From the IMG/VR virus record IMGVR_UViG_2778261505_000002: a stretch of 64,000 bases of DNA. One strand, given 5' to 3'. The notes under the pieces were generated by a model. The model saw only the letters and a list, made by a program, of their open reading frames with translations, was not told the origin of the DNA and made no database searches. Positions 54,059 to 58,955 of the stretch are shown piece by piece (positions within the stretch are counted from its first letter, which is position 1; the number at the start of each line of letters is the position of its first letter). The position numbers and the translations under genes were made by a program. The stretch comes from a virus (Duplodnaviria > Heunggongvirae > Uroviricota > Caudoviricetes).

Positions 54059-55201
54059 ATGTCATATTCAACGTTCCGTTTGGGTGCTAATGATGCAACC
54101 AAAGAGCCTATGTTCCTCGGACAATCTGTCAACGTGGCACGTTACGATCAGCAAAAATACCGTGATTTTGAAAAGTTGATTGAACGTCAATTGTCTTTCT
54201 TCTGGCGGCCGGAAGAAGTTGATATTTCGAGCGATCGTATCGACTTCAACACGAAGCTGCGGGACCACGAACGTCACATTTTTCTGAGCAATCTCCGTTA
54301 TCAAACGTTACTCGATTCAGTTCAGGGACGTAGTCCAAATGCAACGCTGCTGCCGCTTATCTCTATTCCTGAACTGGAAACGTGGGTTGAAACGTGGTCT
54401 TTCTCTGAGACTATCCATAGCCGCAGCTACACCCACATTATTCGTGGCATGGTGGACGATCCGAGCATTGTTTTTGACGGTATTGTTACGGATGAAGAAA
54501 TCATCAACCGAGCGATCAGTATCTCTGCTGAATATGACAGGCTTTATGGGATGACCTGCGAGCGCCAGTCGTTAGGTGAGAAGGAATTTGAGCGTCTGTA
54601 CGTAAATGAATATGGCTGGGAGCCATACCCTTTGCATCGTCAGCTTTTCCGCACGTTGGTGTCCATTAATGCGCTTGAGGCGATCCGTTTCTACGTAAGT
54701 TTTGCATGTACGTTTGCCTTTGGTGAACGGAAGTTGCTTGAGGGTAACACCAAAATTATGCGCTTTATTGCCCGTGATGAAGCTCTGCATTGCGAAGGAA
54801 CTGAACGCATGATCCGCTTCATGCGTACCGGTCGCGAAGGTTTATTGTGGAAAGAGATTGCTGCTGATGAAGAAAACGTCATTTACGACACCATGAAATC
54901 AGTCGCCGAACAAGAAATGAACTGGGCAGACTATCTCTTCAAAGACGGTTCGATGATTGGTTTAAACGCGGATATTCTCAAAACCTATGTAAAATACCGC
55001 ACCAATCTGGCTATGAATCGTCTTGGCCTGAAGGCTTTATTTCCAGAAGTTACCACTGATCCGCTGGTCTGGATGAACAAGTGGTTGTTAACCGACACAC
55101 TGCAAATTGCGCCACAAGAGGCAGAGCAAAGCACATATCTGGTAGGTCAGATCGATTCTACCGTGGATAAGGCTTCTCTAAGCCAGTTTGCAGACCTGTA
55201 A
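54059..55201 (+). CDS. nrdB: Ribonucleotide reductase class Ia small subunit
   Basis: Di-iron/tyrosyl-radical motifs ([23 protein letters not shown]); N-terminus closely resembles enterobacterial NrdB as I recall it. Confidence 0.9.
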
Positions 55202-55278: not shown

Positions 55279-56148
55279 ATGAACTTTACCAAACTGACTG
55301 ACCACCTGAAACTTGCCACCGATCGACTCATTGGATTTAAGCCAGAACCATATGAGTTGCATGAAGGCCATGGTGTAGCCACTGAAAGTATTTACAAGAT
55401 GGTCGATCAGTTTCATGAACTCTTCCAGCATCCGAGACGCGTTATGCCGACACCAGAGCTGCTTCGTCTCCGTGCAAGCCTGATTCATGAAGAAGCTGTA
55501 GTGGAAGGTATTCCAGCCGCAATGAATGGGGATATTGAGCAACTGCTGGATGCAATGGCCGACTTTTTATACGTTGGTGTTGGTACGATGGTCGCCATCA
55601 AAGGTGGTATTTCTACCGGCATGACTTATTACACGCAGGAACAGAGCATTGATCGCTTTATGCAGACAATTTTTGTGCCTGGTAACACTGTTTTCGATGA
55701 TATGGCAATGCCATTTCAGGAAGCTCGTGAGGCGTCATGTATGCTCGAAGAGCTGGCAGATAAACTTGAGAAGAAGACTGTTAAGGATTCTGAGCTGATT
55801 CAGGAACTGCGCCGTGTAATGAACAAAATCTATGTGGCGTGCATGATGACTTATCGACTGGCTGATTTTCTCGGTATCAATGTCGTCGAGCTGGTTGGCG
55901 AAATTCATCGGTCCAACATGACAAAATTATGGCCTGCAGATGCCGAAGAGCGTCGCCATGCTGTGGCCAACTGCAAATACGACTCTTCTGACCTGGGATT
56001 TCGCCATGCTGATGGCACCGATAAGATGATCGGTTTTCGAATTTCCGATGGAAAGATTCTGAAGTCTCCAACCTATAGTGATGTCGATTTATCCTCCTTT
56101 GTTGAGCAAGCTAAAGCCTCAGCAATGTACGGAATGATCAAAAAATAA
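55279..56148 (+). CDS. Hypothetical protein; possibly MazG-like all-alpha NTP pyrophosphohydrolase
   Basis: Helical protein with EExxE...D acidic pattern (LIHEEAVVE...DAMADFLYV); weak assignment. Confidence 0.3.
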   Translation: MNFTKLTDHLKLATDRLIGFKPEPYELHEGHGVATESIYKMVDQFHELFQHPRRVMPTPELLRLRASLIHEEAVVEGIPAAMNGDIEQLLDAMADFLYVGVGTMVAIKGGISTGMTYYTQEQSIDRFMQTIFVPGNTVFDDMAMPFQEAREASCMLEELADKLEKKTVKDSELIQELRRVMNKIYVACMMTYRLADFLGINVVELVGEIHRSNMTKLWPADAEERRHAVANCKYDSSDLGFRHADGTDKMIGFRISDGKILKSPTYSDVDLSSFVEQAKASAMYGMIKK

Positions 56149-56292
56149 TTGTAGGTAGTTATCTATCTGTGTATATTGCGCTGGCGCGTTAAATTTCTGA
56201 AACAACTATTCGTTTTTGGTGGCCTATGGCCACCATTTTTTTATCTGTCTGGTCTTGTTCTCTCAATAAATGTAAACTCACGCAATGAATAA

Positions 56293-57423
56293 GTGGTTAC
56301 TTATCTTTGTGAGGTTTTTGTGTCACTCCTTTTGAATCGTGAGCATACGAACGGTCAGGTAACAAACGCATCGTATGCAAAAGTTATTGAGACGGTGCTT
56401 AAAAGCGGCGTGCAGGCTGATGATCGCACAGGCACTGGTACTTTAAGCACCTGCTACGTTCCCTCTTACTACATGCTTACTGGTGGGACTGTGCCGCTTA
56501 TTTCTGGAAAGGCGGTAAATCTTAAGCCACTGCTTGTCGAACTTGAGTGGTATCTGAAAGGCACGGGCAACATCCAATTTCTCAAGGATAACGGCGTTAA
56601 GATTTGGGATGCATGGGCCGATGAGAATGGCGATTTGGGGCCGGTTTACGGTAAGCAGTGGCGTCGATGGGAAGATACCCGCATCGTGAGCCATAGTGAA
56701 TATCTGAGCAAGATCGCTACTTTCCGTGAACGCGGGTACAAAGTCGAGGGATACCTGGGTATCAGTGAAGATCGCGTAGTGCTGTCCCGTGAAATCGATC
56801 AGCTACAGCGTATTGTCGATACACTGCGCACGAACCCTACCGATCGTCGCATCATGCTTAACGCATGGAACGTAGGCGAGCTTGAGGATATGAAACTGCC
56901 ACCTTGCCACTTTGTCTTCTCTTTGTGGAGTCGTGAACTGGATTTTGAAACCCGTTTAACGATGGCAACTGACATTGGTCTTCAACACAGTCGCCTCGGT
57001 TACGAGTCTATCTACACCAAGATGCTATACGATCTGGAGATGGACGGCAGTGTTACTGAAACTGAACTGGATGAACTTGGAATCCCCAAACGCATCCTCA
57101 ACTCCTGCCTCGTACAGCGTAGCGTAGACACTTTTGTTGGTATGCCATTCAATATTGCTGGCTATGGCATTCTCACTCATTTTCTCGCGAAGATTACGGG
57201 TCACATGGCCGGTGCATTTGTGCATTTTGGCTTTGACGTGCATTTGTACAACAACCACATGGAAGGTGTGTGTGAGCTAATGCAACGACAGGCTCCAGAG
57301 CATTCAGATCCGGTCGTTATATTCCCTAATGAATGGTCTGAGCTGGATGATTTCAAATGGGACGAGATTCTTATTCTTGGCTATGCCCCTCTACCGTGGA
57401 TCAAGGTTCCAGTGGCGGTGTGA
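56293..57423 (+). CDS. thyA: Thymidylate synthase (ThyA family) with internal insertions
   Basis: DRTGTGTLS, IWDAWADENGDLGPVYGKQWRRW, RRIMLNAWNVGEL, LPPCH, PFNIAGY motifs; ~45-aa insertion after the PCH active-site segment; start may be the GTG at 56320. Confidence 0.8.
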   Translation: MVTYLCEVFVSLLLNREHTNGQVTNASYAKVIETVLKSGVQADDRTGTGTLSTCYVPSYYMLTGGTVPLISGKAVNLKPLLVELEWYLKGTGNIQFLKDNGVKIWDAWADENGDLGPVYGKQWRRWEDTRIVSHSEYLSKIATFRERGYKVEGYLGISEDRVVLSREIDQLQRIVDTLRTNPTDRRIMLNAWNVGELEDMKLPPCHFVFSLWSRELDFETRLTMATDIGLQHSRLGYESIYTKMLYDLEMDGSVTETELDELGIPKRILNSCLVQRSVDTFVGMPFNIAGYGILTHFLAKITGHMAGAFVHFGFDVHLYNNHMEGVCELMQRQAPEHSDPVVIFPNEWSELDDFKWDEILILGYAPLPWIKVPVAV

Positions 57424-57424
57424 T

Positions 57425-57838
57425 ATGGCAAGAGGTATGTATGTCTTATGCGAAATTGAAGGTGTGCTGGCAAATACCAGCCATCGTAAATCTGTATCTG
57501 ACTCGGATGCAGGCCAATTCATTGCCGGTGATGAACTCATTTTCCCCACCAGCCGTATGTTGCGTGGTTTTGCTCGCTCAGGGGCTGAAGTGGTGCTTAT
57601 CAGTAGCCGCTCTGAAACTCTTGAAGCGCCCACTAAACGATGGCTGAAAGATTTTGGTGTTGATTACGACTGGCTTCACCTCGTACCGAATAGCACTAGT
57701 TATGAGAAGCATATTAAGCGCACATTAGCGGAGCATAAAGGCGATCTGCTTATCGCTGCGCTGGTGCACGATCCTCGACTCCGTGCCGCTTTAGCTGACT
57801 CTCATCATAGACCGGTCATCTATGAGGTGAGCAAATGA
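57425..57838 (+). CDS. Hypothetical protein
   Basis: Start set at ATG overlapping the thyA stop (track ORF begins at 57329 inside thyA); 3' end overlaps the DHFR start. Confidence 0.4.
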   Translation: MARGMYVLCEIEGVLANTSHRKSVSDSDAGQFIAGDELIFPTSRMLRGFARSGAEVVLISSRSETLEAPTKRWLKDFGVDYDWLHLVPNSTSYEKHIKRTLAEHKGDLLIAALVHDPRLRAALADSHHRPVIYEVSK

Positions 57839-58311
57839 AGATGATAGCTGCTGTTGGCCGTAACTATGAGATCGGCATAGCGAACGAACTGCCCTGGCGT
57901 TGTTCTACCGATCTGAAGCTATTTAAGAGACTCACCAAAAACGCCACTGTCGTTATGGGGCGTAAAACGATGGAAAGTCTCAAACGCCCTCTTCCAGAGC
58001 GTCATAACCTCGTTTTGACGCGCTCTCATGGCTTTGTACCAAATGGATTCTACCCTGCTGGTGTGGATGATGTGTTGCGATTACCAGAGCCTGTGTGGGT
58101 GATTGGCGGGGAACAAATTTACTCGCTATTCATGCCGCATGTTGAAGAGATTTGGCTCTCCCACATCGGCGTTGATGTGCCAAACGCCGATGCATTCTTC
58201 CCGGCAAGCATGATGCGTAATTTAGGCTTTGTGCCTGTTGAAACAGCTTATACCCAACGAGCCAGCGAGGAAGAGCCTGGCTTTTCGCAGATCGTATACA
58301 GAAGGTCGTAA
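57835..58311 (+). CDS. Dihydrofolate reductase
   Basis: DHFR motifs (IAAVGRN...LPW, VVMGRKTMESL, VWVIGGEQIY); 158 aa. Confidence 0.85.
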   Translation: MKMIAAVGRNYEIGIANELPWRCSTDLKLFKRLTKNATVVMGRKTMESLKRPLPERHNLVLTRSHGFVPNGFYPAGVDDVLRLPEPVWVIGGEQIYSLFMPHVEEIWLSHIGVDVPNADAFFPASMMRNLGFVPVETAYTQRASEEEPGFSQIVYRRS

Positions 58312-58955
58312 TGGATTACCGGATTGGGATCACTGGTGCTCAGGGCAGTGGGAAAACAACCCTGGCTAAATATATCGACAAACATTACGGAATCCCTTAC
58401 GTGGATGCTGGTGTCGGAAGTTTGATGAGCCGCCTCGGTGTTCGAGTAAGTGATTCTATGCCTCTATATGAGCGGCTTCAGATTCAAATGGAAATAGCAA
58501 AGCATATAGAGCTACTTACGCGTGGTGCTGAAGGCTTTGTTATCGATCGCACACCTGCTGATGTTATGGCCTACACGTTGGATTTGGTCGGCCATACAAA
58601 TGAAGATCGGTGTATTGAGTTAGCCCTCGATATCGAAAAGTTTTGCCACAAAACTGCTATTTCAAACTTTAACGCCATTGCTGGCCTACGCCCGGGGGTC
58701 GCTCTCTCAGAGCGAGATTACTTGCGGTCACAACGAGCATCATTAGACCGTCTGTATGTCGCTCGTATTGATGCGTTGATGTGCGGGGAACTGACAAAAA
58801 TTCACCTGCATCCGCAAAGGGGAGATCTGCAAACCTTCGTCGTTTCCAACCGGTATCGCACAGTTGAAGCAAGAGCCAGATCAGTGATGAGAATGCTAGA
58901 TAACGCTGTAGAAAAGATAGAAAACCGGTTCTGTGGCCGAGTGACCGTTCATTAG
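58311..58955 (+). CDS. P-loop kinase (putative nucleoside/nucleotide kinase)
   Basis: N-terminal Walker A (GITGAQGSGKTTLA); size and context within the nucleotide-metabolism cluster. Confidence 0.5.
   Translation: MDYRIGITGAQGSGKTTLAKYIDKHYGIPYVDAGVGSLMSRLGVRVSDSMPLYERLQIQMEIAKHIELLTRGAEGFVIDRTPADVMAYTLDLVGHTNEDRCIELALDIEKFCHKTAISNFNAIAGLRPGVALSERDYLRSQRASLDRLYVARIDALMCGELTKIHLHPQRGDLQTFVVSNRYRTVEARARSVMRMLDNAVEKIENRFCGRVTVH

Follow-up and report, generated by a model that had tools for sequence, protein, structure and literature searches.

The stretch of DNA analysed here (the window, 64,000 nt) carries a gene for a ThyA-type thymidylate synthase (TS), thyA (56320..57423, +), encoding 367 aa. 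The largest open reading frame extends from GTG 56293 to 57423. GTG 56320 was favoured as the start codon and is most likely the true one, since it lies 5 nt downstream of a GAGG (56311-56314), the equivalent codon of the SSU5 orthologue is TTG, and annotated homologues also comprise 367 aa. Upstream are located nrdB, encoding the ribonucleotide reductase small subunit (54059..55201, +; PF00268, E 4.5e-46; phrog_86, E 1e-144), and a gene for a MazG-like nucleoside triphosphate pyrophosphohydrolase of 289 aa (55279..56148, +; PF01503, E 1.3e-8; phrog_671, E 1e-47). In the annotated relative Cyrano, NrdA is encoded upstream of NrdB. The MazG-like protein gave a weak match in the PDB (E 1e-3) to MazG-like DR2231, a dUTPase. 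The gap between the mazG-like gene and thyA contains a terminator-like hairpin (56217..56245, +), identified by consensus match only, with an 8-bp stem including six G-C pairs followed by seven T residues.

A HAD/PNKP-phosphatase-like protein of 137 aa (57425..57838, +) is encoded 1 nt past the thyA stop codon. It matched phrog_5387 (E 6e-89), Pnkp1 4xrp (E 4e-6) and, below the cut-off, PF25109 (E 1.5e-4), and the catalytic D-x-D motif, which its Photobacterium homologue has, is replaced by E-x-E. Its stop codon overlaps the start codon of a dihydrofolate reductase (DHFR) gene (57835..58311, +) in an ATGA. The DHFR matched PF00186 (E 1.6e-34) and NCBIfam DfrA51 (338 bits vs. a cut-off of 322), is 91% identical to the SSU5 DHFR and contains all of the key residues A6, I13, D26 and S48. 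By these sequence criteria, it is a DfrA51-type DHFR with predicted trimethoprim resistance; dfrA51 has been characterised experimentally, and its function has been shown (PMC12217456). The DHFR stop codon in turn overlaps, in a TAATG, the start of a gene for a 214-aa P-loop protein of the nucleoside/nucleotide kinase fold (58311..58955, +; AAA_28, E 6.9e-10), which possesses the motifs GAQGSGKTT, DRTPxDV, LRPG and RxQRxSLD. Structural neighbours of its AF2 model (pLDDT 87) were the NadR kinase domain, dCK, thymidylate kinases and dNK, with TM-scores of 0.55-0.61; shikimate kinase and AK were found as well, i.e., some neighbours were non-nucleotide kinases, and sequence matches were at the P-loop level only. 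Thus, the stop/start junctions from thyA through the HAD-like and DHFR genes to the kinase gene all abut or overlap.

Judged by nucleotide identity and gene order, which both matched SSU5-like relatives, the host element is an SSU5-like phage-plasmid. Over 3.7 kb, nucleotide identity amounted to 99.6% with Escherichia phage CMS-2020a, 98% with Cyrano and 76% with SSU5. In PLSDB, 372 records matched (365 of them non-mobilizable; about 105-125 kb). Orthologues with 87-99% protein identity were found in an identical operon in Salmonella phage SSU5 (SSU5_081), Escherichia phage Cyrano (CYRAN_72) and the PLSDB plasmids; they also show the 367-aa architecture, and their differences from the window protein are allelic only. 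The entire module SbcCD...NrdA-NrdB-MazG-TS-HAD-DHFR-AAA_28-exonuclease is retained even in distant Photobacterium. In the Cyrano record, the thyA orthologue is misnamed as ThyX.

Fold and inserts of the thymidylate synthase

The ThyA-family reading frame proposed in the original prediction (56293-57423, +) proved to be real. Its product matched Pfam Thymidylat_synt (PF00303) with 263 bits vs. a cut-off of 24.3 (E 2.8e-78), PHROG 160 (E 4e-95) and the TIGR03284 equivalog with 219 bits vs. a cut-off of 108. The thresholds of the narrower PRK01827 sub-models were not attained, since the inserts described below split the match. Over all 264 aligned positions, 44% identity to E. coli ThyA was observed. 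The AF2 model (pLDDT 94, pTM 0.92) matched E. coli TS in Foldseek with an E of 8e-32 and a TM-score of 0.94, normalised to target length, i.e., to the whole E. coli chain. Model and match both place the protein in the TS fold, in common with E. coli ThyA (PDB 2TSC/1TYS).

An excess of about 110 aa over the canonical enzyme had been predicted, and the protein is indeed longer: by 103 aa than E. coli ThyA when counted from GTG 56320, or by 112 aa from the first GTG of the reading frame. The excess is made up of a 15-aa N-terminal extension, insert A (net 34 aa) and insert B (net about 51 aa). In the phmmer search against the PDB, E. coli TS was aligned in three blocks (query 27-127 = E. coli 3-102, 166-212 = 107-153 and 270-376 = 160-264). 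The one insert named previously, between LPPCH and QRS, is seen here as a gap against E. coli TS, with a net length of about 51 rather than 45 aa; insert A, after QWRRW, and the N-terminal extension had been missed.

Insert A comprises residues 119-156 (DTRIVSHSEYLSKIATFRERGYKVEGYLGISEDRVVLS; 56674..56787, +). The AF2 model shows, with high confidence, strands at residues 117-124, 141-146 and 152-159 and helices at 125-137, so that insert A would extend the small domain by a beta/alpha element. Its dN/dS of 0.02-0.03 indicates purifying selection. By comparison with the human TS sequence, site A is presumably the site of the second, 8-aa insert of eukaryotic TS. Small-domain surface inserts that do not impair catalysis are already known from L. 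casei and eukaryotic TS; the 50-aa insert of L. casei TS lies elsewhere, between WDEWA and GDLG, and site B is empty in both. As a side observation, insert A was found to be mosaic between SSU5-like lineages.

Insert B is a 55-aa segment (residues 204-258, SRELDFETR...LDELGIPKR; 56929..57093, +) that aligns to a gap in all solved TSs. It is located at the tip of the hairpin that links the strand of the catalytic Cys to the QRS strand, where E. coli ThyA has a VADG turn, and was modelled with helices at residues 209-225, 231-242 and 247-253 (block-mean pLDDT 95-98). With a dN/dS of 0.14, insert B is under purifying selection (the TS core has a dN/dS of 0.086), and GC content is uniform across the inserts. 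A HeH/SAP-like role of the LDELGIPKR end in nucleic-acid binding was rejected on account of the net acidic character of the insert (12 D/E vs. 6 K/R). Insert B alone gave no phmmer match in the PDB even at E<=10, and when a long-form profile was searched against the PDB, every solved TS broke at insert B. An insert-B-only profile yielded five matches among 1.84 billion representatives; with 46 positions and low information, this profile is no gauge of spread or origin.

The original prediction placed the insert beside the active site. For the protein's own active site, this holds only in sequence, with 7-8 strand residues between the catalytic Cys and insert B. By homology to the human enzyme, insert B would begin one residue past the equivalent of Tyr202, which lies at the dimer-interface rim, beside Arg175/176 of its own subunit (E. 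coli R126/R127), and faces the Lys47-Thr55 phosphate-binding loop of the partner subunit (PMC9831607). In three dimensions, insert B is therefore more likely to neighbour the partner's phosphate-binding loop than its own active site.

Insert-bearing thymidylate synthases in other phages

The inserts were found in hundreds of phage-plasmids (the PLSDB records mentioned above), and Derbicus and OBP are examples of cultured phages with them. In many homologues, the site-B insert is 33-78 aa long with conserved end motifs. Erwinia phage Derbicus gp110, Pseudomonas phage OBP gp234 and 201phi2-1 B3FJL1 carry an insert in the same hairpin with the ends [ST]xE[LM]xxxER ... [LF][DE]xxG[IV]P. The best viral structural matches were TSs of jumbo phages (TMq 0.83-0.85), and long-form TSs also occur on metagenomic jumbo-phage contigs. 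The jumbo-phage TSs differ from the window protein in that identity is only 32-38%, insert lengths vary and no DHFR, HAD or kinase gene adjoins the TS gene. The OBP TS deviates further, lacking insert A and showing additional inserts and diverged active-site motifs (MRSND, PANMN). For one distant long-form TS, a canonical thymidylate kinase and NrdB are encoded close by. A module with the end motifs of insert B was also observed at a second site in P0122 and in the TS of phage OBP, and P0123, a non-TS repeat protein, matched the insert profile.

No account of inserts A and B was found in the literature on the SSU5/pHCM2 TS and on phage TS inserts, and the literature searched contained no enzymatic or genetic test of the window protein or of an insert-bearing homologue. 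TS ranks among the most studied enzymes, and its insert-bearing form is an architectural variant that is widespread and mostly phage-borne, and for which neither a solved structure nor a description was found within the search.

Active site and alternative explanations

The catalytic cysteine, Cys196 (E. coli Cys146; codon 56905..56907, +), lies in KLPPCHFVF. All 24 E. coli ThyA functional residues checked were kept, namely R21, E58, I79, W80, D81, W83, Y94, R126, R127, L143, C146, H147, Q165, R166, S167, D169, G173, F176, N177, H207, Y209, K259, A263 and the C-terminal residue. The catalytic and phosphate-binding residues are present as C196-H197, R36, R267, S268, R176 and R177 (E. coli C146-H147, R21, R166, S167, R126 and R127), the last two being donated by the partner subunit in TS. 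The residues for dUMP specificity and the E58/Y94/H147 network are kept as N278 (Asn177), E74, Y110 and H197; PMC8670742 describes why positions 147 and 177 matter. Folate-binding and closure residues are represented by W96, W99, D270 and F277 (E. coli W80, W83, D169 and F176), and the C-terminus, IKVPVAV, provides a PVAV closure tail that is nearly invariant across the clade. In 72 diverse long-form sequences, the catalytic, substrate-binding and cofactor-binding residues were invariant.

Since the TS family includes hydroxymethylases, the original prediction had raised the alternative of a pyrimidine hydroxymethylase. Such a dUMP/dCMP hydroxymethylase would start DNA hypermodification, with the MazG-like, HAD-like and kinase proteins acting as dTTPase, dTMPase and hmdUMP kinase. 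The SPO1-type pathway employs a dTTPase, a dTMPase and a dNMP kinase, and genes of these broad classes flank thyA in a superficial resemblance. Against it stands the E-x-E of the HAD-like protein in place of a catalytic D-x-D. SPO1 gp29 is likewise long (383 aa), but its extra length is a C-terminal extension away from sites A and B, and both inserts are missing in gp29 as well as in T4 gp42. These two enzymes belong to the same superfamily and share the Cys nucleophile, E58, Y94, R166-S167, D169, H207 and Y209 with the window protein, with about 20-22% identity. In contrast, W83, L143, H147, Q165, F176 and the C-terminal closure tail, all kept in the window protein, are changed or absent in both gp42 and gp29; W80, kept as well, is missing from one or both of them. 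When the hydroxymethylase signature (D177, non-His147, loss of Q165/W83/F176) was sought, the TS residue was found everywhere; T4 gp42 has D at position 177, whereas the retained N177 argues that dCMP is not the substrate. The score above the TIGR03284 equivalog cut-off speaks against a hydroxymethylase, too, as does the co-translated functional DHFR, which is required only where dihydrofolate is the product. Neither a glycosyltransferase nor 5-HMUDK nor aGPT-Pplase is annotated in the region of the relative's genome that is covered by the window, the only DNA-modification enzyme annotated in the relative being an adenine methyltransferase, and sequence assemblies routinely yield the element as a plasmid. 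Taken together, a hydroxymethylase is very improbable, and the comparison with ThyA, gp42 and gp29 turned against this part of the prediction.

Two further explanations concern the inserts. Group I introns are classic in phage TS genes, as in T4 td, and insert B (or A) might be a selfish or recent element in thyA that is tolerated but not used, such as what is left of an intron or intein, or a mobile mini-insertion. The modules with the same ends at the second site in P0122 and the OBP TS, and the match of P0123, would fit such mobility, as would an exact 10-nt direct repeat (TGAACTGGAT) bracketing 129 nt of insert B. However, the repeat was rejected as an insertion footprint, since chance alone would give about 0.17 such repeats in 600 nt. 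The thyA reading frame is unbroken, and a search of 55-60 kb against Rfam was negative at E<=1. At 55 aa, insert B is well below the size of an intein (at least 130 aa with splicing blocks), and nuclease motifs are absent. The uniform GC content, the selection on insert B and its modelling as a confident helical module packed against the enzyme also weigh against a selfish element, which is highly unlikely given that the insert position is conserved from Enterobacterales phage-plasmids to jumbo phages, down to about 38% overall identity. It is hardly more credible that the inserts mark lost enzymatic function, i.e., that this TS homologue is impaired in catalysis or moonlights in, e.g., a structural or regulatory role. 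Large inserts do lie near the catalytic strand in sequence, and the HAD-like neighbour apparently lacks catalytic aspartates, so that decay within the module is conceivable. This is opposed by the invariant active-site residues of the long-form sequences, the low dN/dS of the core and the linkage of thyA to a functional-type DHFR (DfrA51).

Proposed nucleotide supply and possible roles of the inserts

The gene very probably encodes a genuine ThyA-type thymidylate synthase and belongs to a conserved module for nucleotide supply in an SSU5-like phage-plasmid. Thymidylate synthesis had been the favoured reading of the original prediction, and active-site residues, fold, family scores and DHFR context now support it; the clustering of thyA with the DHFR and P-loop genes was borne out as well, with the HAD-like gene between them unmentioned previously. 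In the proposed module, NrdAB would reduce ribonucleotides and the MazG-like enzyme would probably convert dUTP to dUMP. TS would then methylate dUMP in the ThyA-type reaction (dUMP + 5,10-methylene-THF -> dTMP + dihydrofolate), tetrahydrofolate would be regenerated by the translationally coupled DfrA51-type DHFR, and the P-loop kinase, with its dNK/TMPK/NadR-like fold, would probably phosphorylate the product.

The chemistry of the enzyme would be canonical, and the extra residues of about 103 aa would represent lineage-specific surface additions. A structural or regulatory role of the inserts is most likely, and it is unlikely that they alter the reaction. They may support or fine-tune the obligate dimer and active-site closure, or other phage enzymes may dock on them. 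A more specific proposal, put forward tentatively and less likely than not to hold, is that inserts A and B characterise a largely phage-borne ThyA subclass, in which an acidic three-helix module lies against the R21 loop of the partner subunit at the dimer-interface rim. This proposal includes repeated grafting of the module type, with the second-loop copies in OBP and P0122. If it were true, half-site behaviour or closure kinetics might be altered as compared to the host enzyme; alternatively, the enzyme might be insensitive to a TS inhibitor of the host or of a rival phage, or the module might serve as a docking surface to build a phage dNTP-synthesising complex.

The dimer-interface rim, where insert B probably lies next to the partner's active site, is targeted in human TS by dimer-destabilising drugs, and a natural elaboration at this position could inform how dimer contacts tune catalysis. 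In searches for DNA modification, the long ThyA-like gene found here should not count as a hypermodification starter, since ordinary thymidine is most likely what the element produces. The operon pairs TS with DfrA51, a clinically tracked trimethoprim-resistance determinant, and the TS/DHFR pair of the phage-plasmid is therefore relevant to antifolate tolerance.

Thymidylate synthase gene and its neighbourhood

The ThyA-family gene occupies the ORF 56293-57423 on the + strand, and its product matched PF00303 (E 2.8e-78), PHROG 160 (E 4e-95) and TIGR03284 (219 bits; cut-off 108 bits). The GTG at 56320 is the likely start rather than 56293, since GAGG is present 5 nt upstream, annotated homologues comprise 367 aa, and SSU5 carries a TTG at exactly the same codon. 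Compared to E. coli thymidylate synthase (TS), the window TS possesses an N-terminal extension of 15 aa, and the alignment splits into three blocks; therefore, two inserts were defined. Insert A (residues 119-156; 56674-56787, + strand) follows QWRRW and adds a net 34 aa. Insert B (residues 204-258; 56929-57093, + strand) is flanked by LPPCHFVFSLW and ILNSCLVQRS and adds a net of about 51 aa. Thus, the ThyA-family insert originally noted between the catalytic Cys segment and QRS is real and correctly placed, with a length underestimated at ~45 aa; the total excess length had been seen, but insert A was overlooked.

As predicted, genes for a dihydrofolate reductase (DHFR; 57835-58311) and a P-loop protein (58311-58955) were found nearby, while the HAD/PNKP-phosphatase-like gene between thyA and the DHFR gene (57425-57838; 137 aa) had not been mentioned. 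The thyA stop codon lies 1 nt from the ATG of the HAD-like gene, the HAD-like/DHFR junction shares ATGA, and the DHFR/kinase junction shares TAATG; therefore, translational coupling is indicated. Between the mazG-like gene and thyA, a terminator-like hairpin, described as strong, is located at 56217-56245 (TGGTGGCC-TAT-GGCCACCA followed by T7). Since this hairpin precedes thyA, thyA, the HAD-like gene, the DHFR gene and the kinase gene may form a separate transcription unit. A simple scan found no sigma-70-like promoter 5' of thyA.

Thymidylate synthesis versus DNA hypermodification

The window TS was aligned with E. coli ThyA, T4 gp42 (dCMP hydroxymethylase; NC_000866) and SPO1 gp29 (dUMP hydroxymethylase; NC_011421). 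All 24 functional positions of E. coli ThyA examined were kept, i.e., R21, E58, I79, W80, D81, W83, Y94, R126, R127, L143, C146, H147, Q165, R166, S167, D169, G173, F176, N177, H207, Y209, K259, A263 and the terminal hydrophobic carboxylate. In contrast, both hydroxymethylases depart from TS at W83, L143, H147, Q165 and F176 and lack the IKxPVA[IV] tail. In addition, T4 gp42 has Asp in place of N177, and SPO1 gp29 lacks W80 and has Q in place of R127. With 383 aa, SPO1 gp29 is also long, owing to a C-terminal extension and not to inserts at site A or B. Positions 147 and 177 were found to distinguish cytosine-modifying TS homologues in metagenomes (PMC8670742). The AlphaFold2 (AF2) model of the window TS (pLDDT 94, pTM 0.92) covers the whole E. 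coli TS with a TM score of 0.94 normalised to the target; the score normalised to the query was 0.68 because ~100 residues of the window TS have no counterpart in the E. coli enzyme.

Hydroxymethylases release THF and do not require DHFR; hence, a co-translated DHFR counts against a hydroxymethylase. The window DHFR is no decayed copy: the NCBIfam profile assigned it to DfrA51 with 338 bits (cut-off 322 bits), and it shares 91% identity with the SSU5 DHFR, with A6, I13, D26 and S48 intact. A hydroxymethylase identity is disfavoured on account of the TS residues at all 24 positions, the closure tail and the co-translated DHFR. Thus, the cautious original reading, that the adjoining DHFR favours genuine thymidylate synthesis, proved right. 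By sequence and model, the gene is predicted to encode a canonical TS, paired with DHFR in a phage-plasmid dTTP-supply operon, and not a hypermodification enzyme. The window TS can serve as a negative filter in DNA-modification screens.

The DfrA51 family of trimethoprim-resistance alleles was established in 2025 from the phage-plasmid SSU5. In each of the two E. coli hosts tested, dfrA51 from SSU5 increased the trimethoprim MIC by a factor of 128 (from 4 to 512 mg/L and from 2 to 256 mg/L), and the affinity of the purified enzyme for trimethoprim is about 9-fold lower than that of E. coli DHFR (PMC12217456). The resistance phenotype of the window allele is uncertain, since a related SSU5-type plasmid DHFR conferred no resistance in an earlier study (PMC7725336).

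The neighbours of thyA superficially resemble the SPO1-type thymidine-replacement pathway of dTTPase, dTMPase and dNMP kinase (PMC8989533), in that MazG-like, HAD-like and kinase genes are present. However, the HAD-like protein has both catalytic aspartates replaced by glutamates (VLCEIEGV in the window compared to VVCDLDGG in the Photobacterium homologue, L009:10076-10516). The SSU5 protein shows E-x-E as well, and in Enterobacteria the protein may have lost its activity or taken on another role. The only solved relative of the MazG-like protein is DR2231 (E 1e-3), a dUTP-specific enzyme; such an activity would supply TS rather than deplete dTTP. Moreover, the only base-modifying gene in the annotation of the relative is that of an adenine methyltransferase. 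The P-loop protein (motifs GAQGSGKTT and DRTPxDV and an Arg-rich lid-like motif) has its structural neighbours in the NadR kinase domain, dCK, thymidylate kinases and dNK (TM 0.55-0.61). Its homologues occur only in SSU5-like elements (50 matches among 5.8 billion proteins), with DRTPxD and the Arg-rich motif invariant. It is predicted to adopt a nucleoside/nucleotide-kinase fold and to represent a putative lineage-restricted kinase family.

Structure, position and distribution of the inserts

In the AF2 model, insert A forms a three-stranded sheet with two short helices and insert B three helices (209-225, 231-242 and 247-253); most insert blocks had a mean pLDDT above 90, with one insert A block at 88. 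Both inserts are under purifying selection, since dN/dS was 0.14 for insert B against pLAO7 (core 0.086) and 0.02-0.03 for insert A against SSU5 and an Enterobacter plasmid. GC content was flat across both inserts, and the insert-bearing region gave no Rfam match. Insert B, at 55 aa, falls short of the size of an intein. As this insert is acidic, nucleic-acid binding is disfavoured.

Along the catalytic-Cys strand of human TS, the final interface residue is Tyr202, which occupies a pocket on the perimeter of the interface between the monomers and stacks on F59' of the partner; modified Tyr202 contacts its own D173/R175 and K47', T55' and D254' of the partner and displaces the partner's K47-T55 loop (PMC9831607). 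Alignment of the human peptide D186-R215 (PMC9831607) placed residue 202 at W203 of the window TS, and insert B begins at S204. Between insert B and its own catalytic Cys lie 7-8 strand residues. Human R175/R176 correspond to E. coli R126/R127, the arginines that bind the phosphate of the partner's dUMP, and the K47-T55 loop includes R50, equivalent to E. coli R21. By analogy, insert B should emerge beside the phosphate-binding loop of the partner subunit, at the interface rim, since it starts directly after the Tyr202 equivalent and given the R126/R127 and R21 equivalences. The original placement beside the active site holds in sequence only, as the insert follows the Cys segment; it lies far from its own Cys and, by human TS homology, is probably nearer to the partner's loop.

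No PDB match was obtained by phmmer with insert B (E<=10), and none of the solved structures contains it, as the match of the long-form profile is interrupted in each TS of the PDB. The best Foldseek TMq of the window TS against solved structures was 0.71; its closest viral structural neighbours are jumbo-phage TSs such as that of 201phi2-1 (TMq 0.83-0.85). A profile of insert B only was too weak for mapping its distribution or origin. Among 72 aligned homologues, about 65 had 33-78 aa inserted at site B, including homologues with an overall identity as low as ~38%; most of these also had an insert of some kind at site A. The ends are conserved ([ST]xE[LM]xxxER ... LDxxx[IV]PxR), with only R212 and P256 strictly conserved inside insert B. 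The contexts examined were phage-plasmids or jumbo-phage-like contigs, and cultured phages are represented as well, among them Erwinia phage Derbicus, whose gp110 has both inserts, and Pseudomonas phage OBP, whose gp234 (L015:2977-4155) has insert B and a comparable module where the L. casei insert is located. The two-insert architecture is common in phage TSs and is probably an elaboration of the dimer-interface rim; it is undescribed in the PDB and in the literature that could be searched. As a structural variant, it is of interest to TS enzymologists but not surprising, given how well the enzyme is known.

The metagenomic protein P0122 carries an insert-B-type module (TxxER ... LDxx[IV]P) at the L. 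casei site, as in OBP. The active-site motifs of OBP gp234 have diverged (MRSND, PANMN), and it may not be a plain TS. The non-TS protein P0123 consists of four insert-B-like units. An exact 10-nt direct repeat, TGAACTGGAT, at 56934-56943 and 57063-57072 (129 nt or 43 codons apart; about 0.17 such repeats expected by chance in 600 nt) encodes ELD twice and encloses the greater part of insert B, so that the helical module would be lost in frame if the two copies recombined. Insert A showed 0 differences from pLAO7 in 37 codons, while core pS was 0.38; compared to the homologues P0002/P0005, it was only 54% identical, with flanks of 93-98% identity. Insert A is thus mosaic between lineages, which points to recombination or to two allelic types of a surface module.

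Host elements

Over the 3.7 kb around thyA, identity was 99.6% with Escherichia phage CMS-2020a, 98% with phage Cyrano and 76% with Salmonella phage SSU5. The annotated relative has an SSU5-type phage-plasmid layout (tail and lysis genes, ParA, RepA, helicase, primase, ligase, Pol III alpha, SbcCD, RuvC), with NrdA-NrdB-MazG-TS-'Pnkp'-DHFR-ATPase-exonuclease after RuvC. In PLSDB, thyA alone matched 372 plasmids (Escherichia 194, Enterobacter 87, Salmonella 45), 365 of them non-mobilizable; the records listed were mostly 105-125 kb, with thyA labelled thymidylate synthase by PGAP. A Photobacterium ganghwense chromosome harbors the entire module in the same order, with a TS of 51% identity, and a 127-kb metagenomic contig keeps it minus DHFR. 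One more distant long-form TS has a canonical thymidylate kinase and NrdB nearby. Two public annotation errors were noticed in Cyrano (OV696614.1): CYRAN_72, the ThyA-family gene, is named 'ThyX Thymidylate synthase', while CYRAN_75, the protein with the P-loop kinase fold, is named 'ABC transporter ATP-binding protein'.
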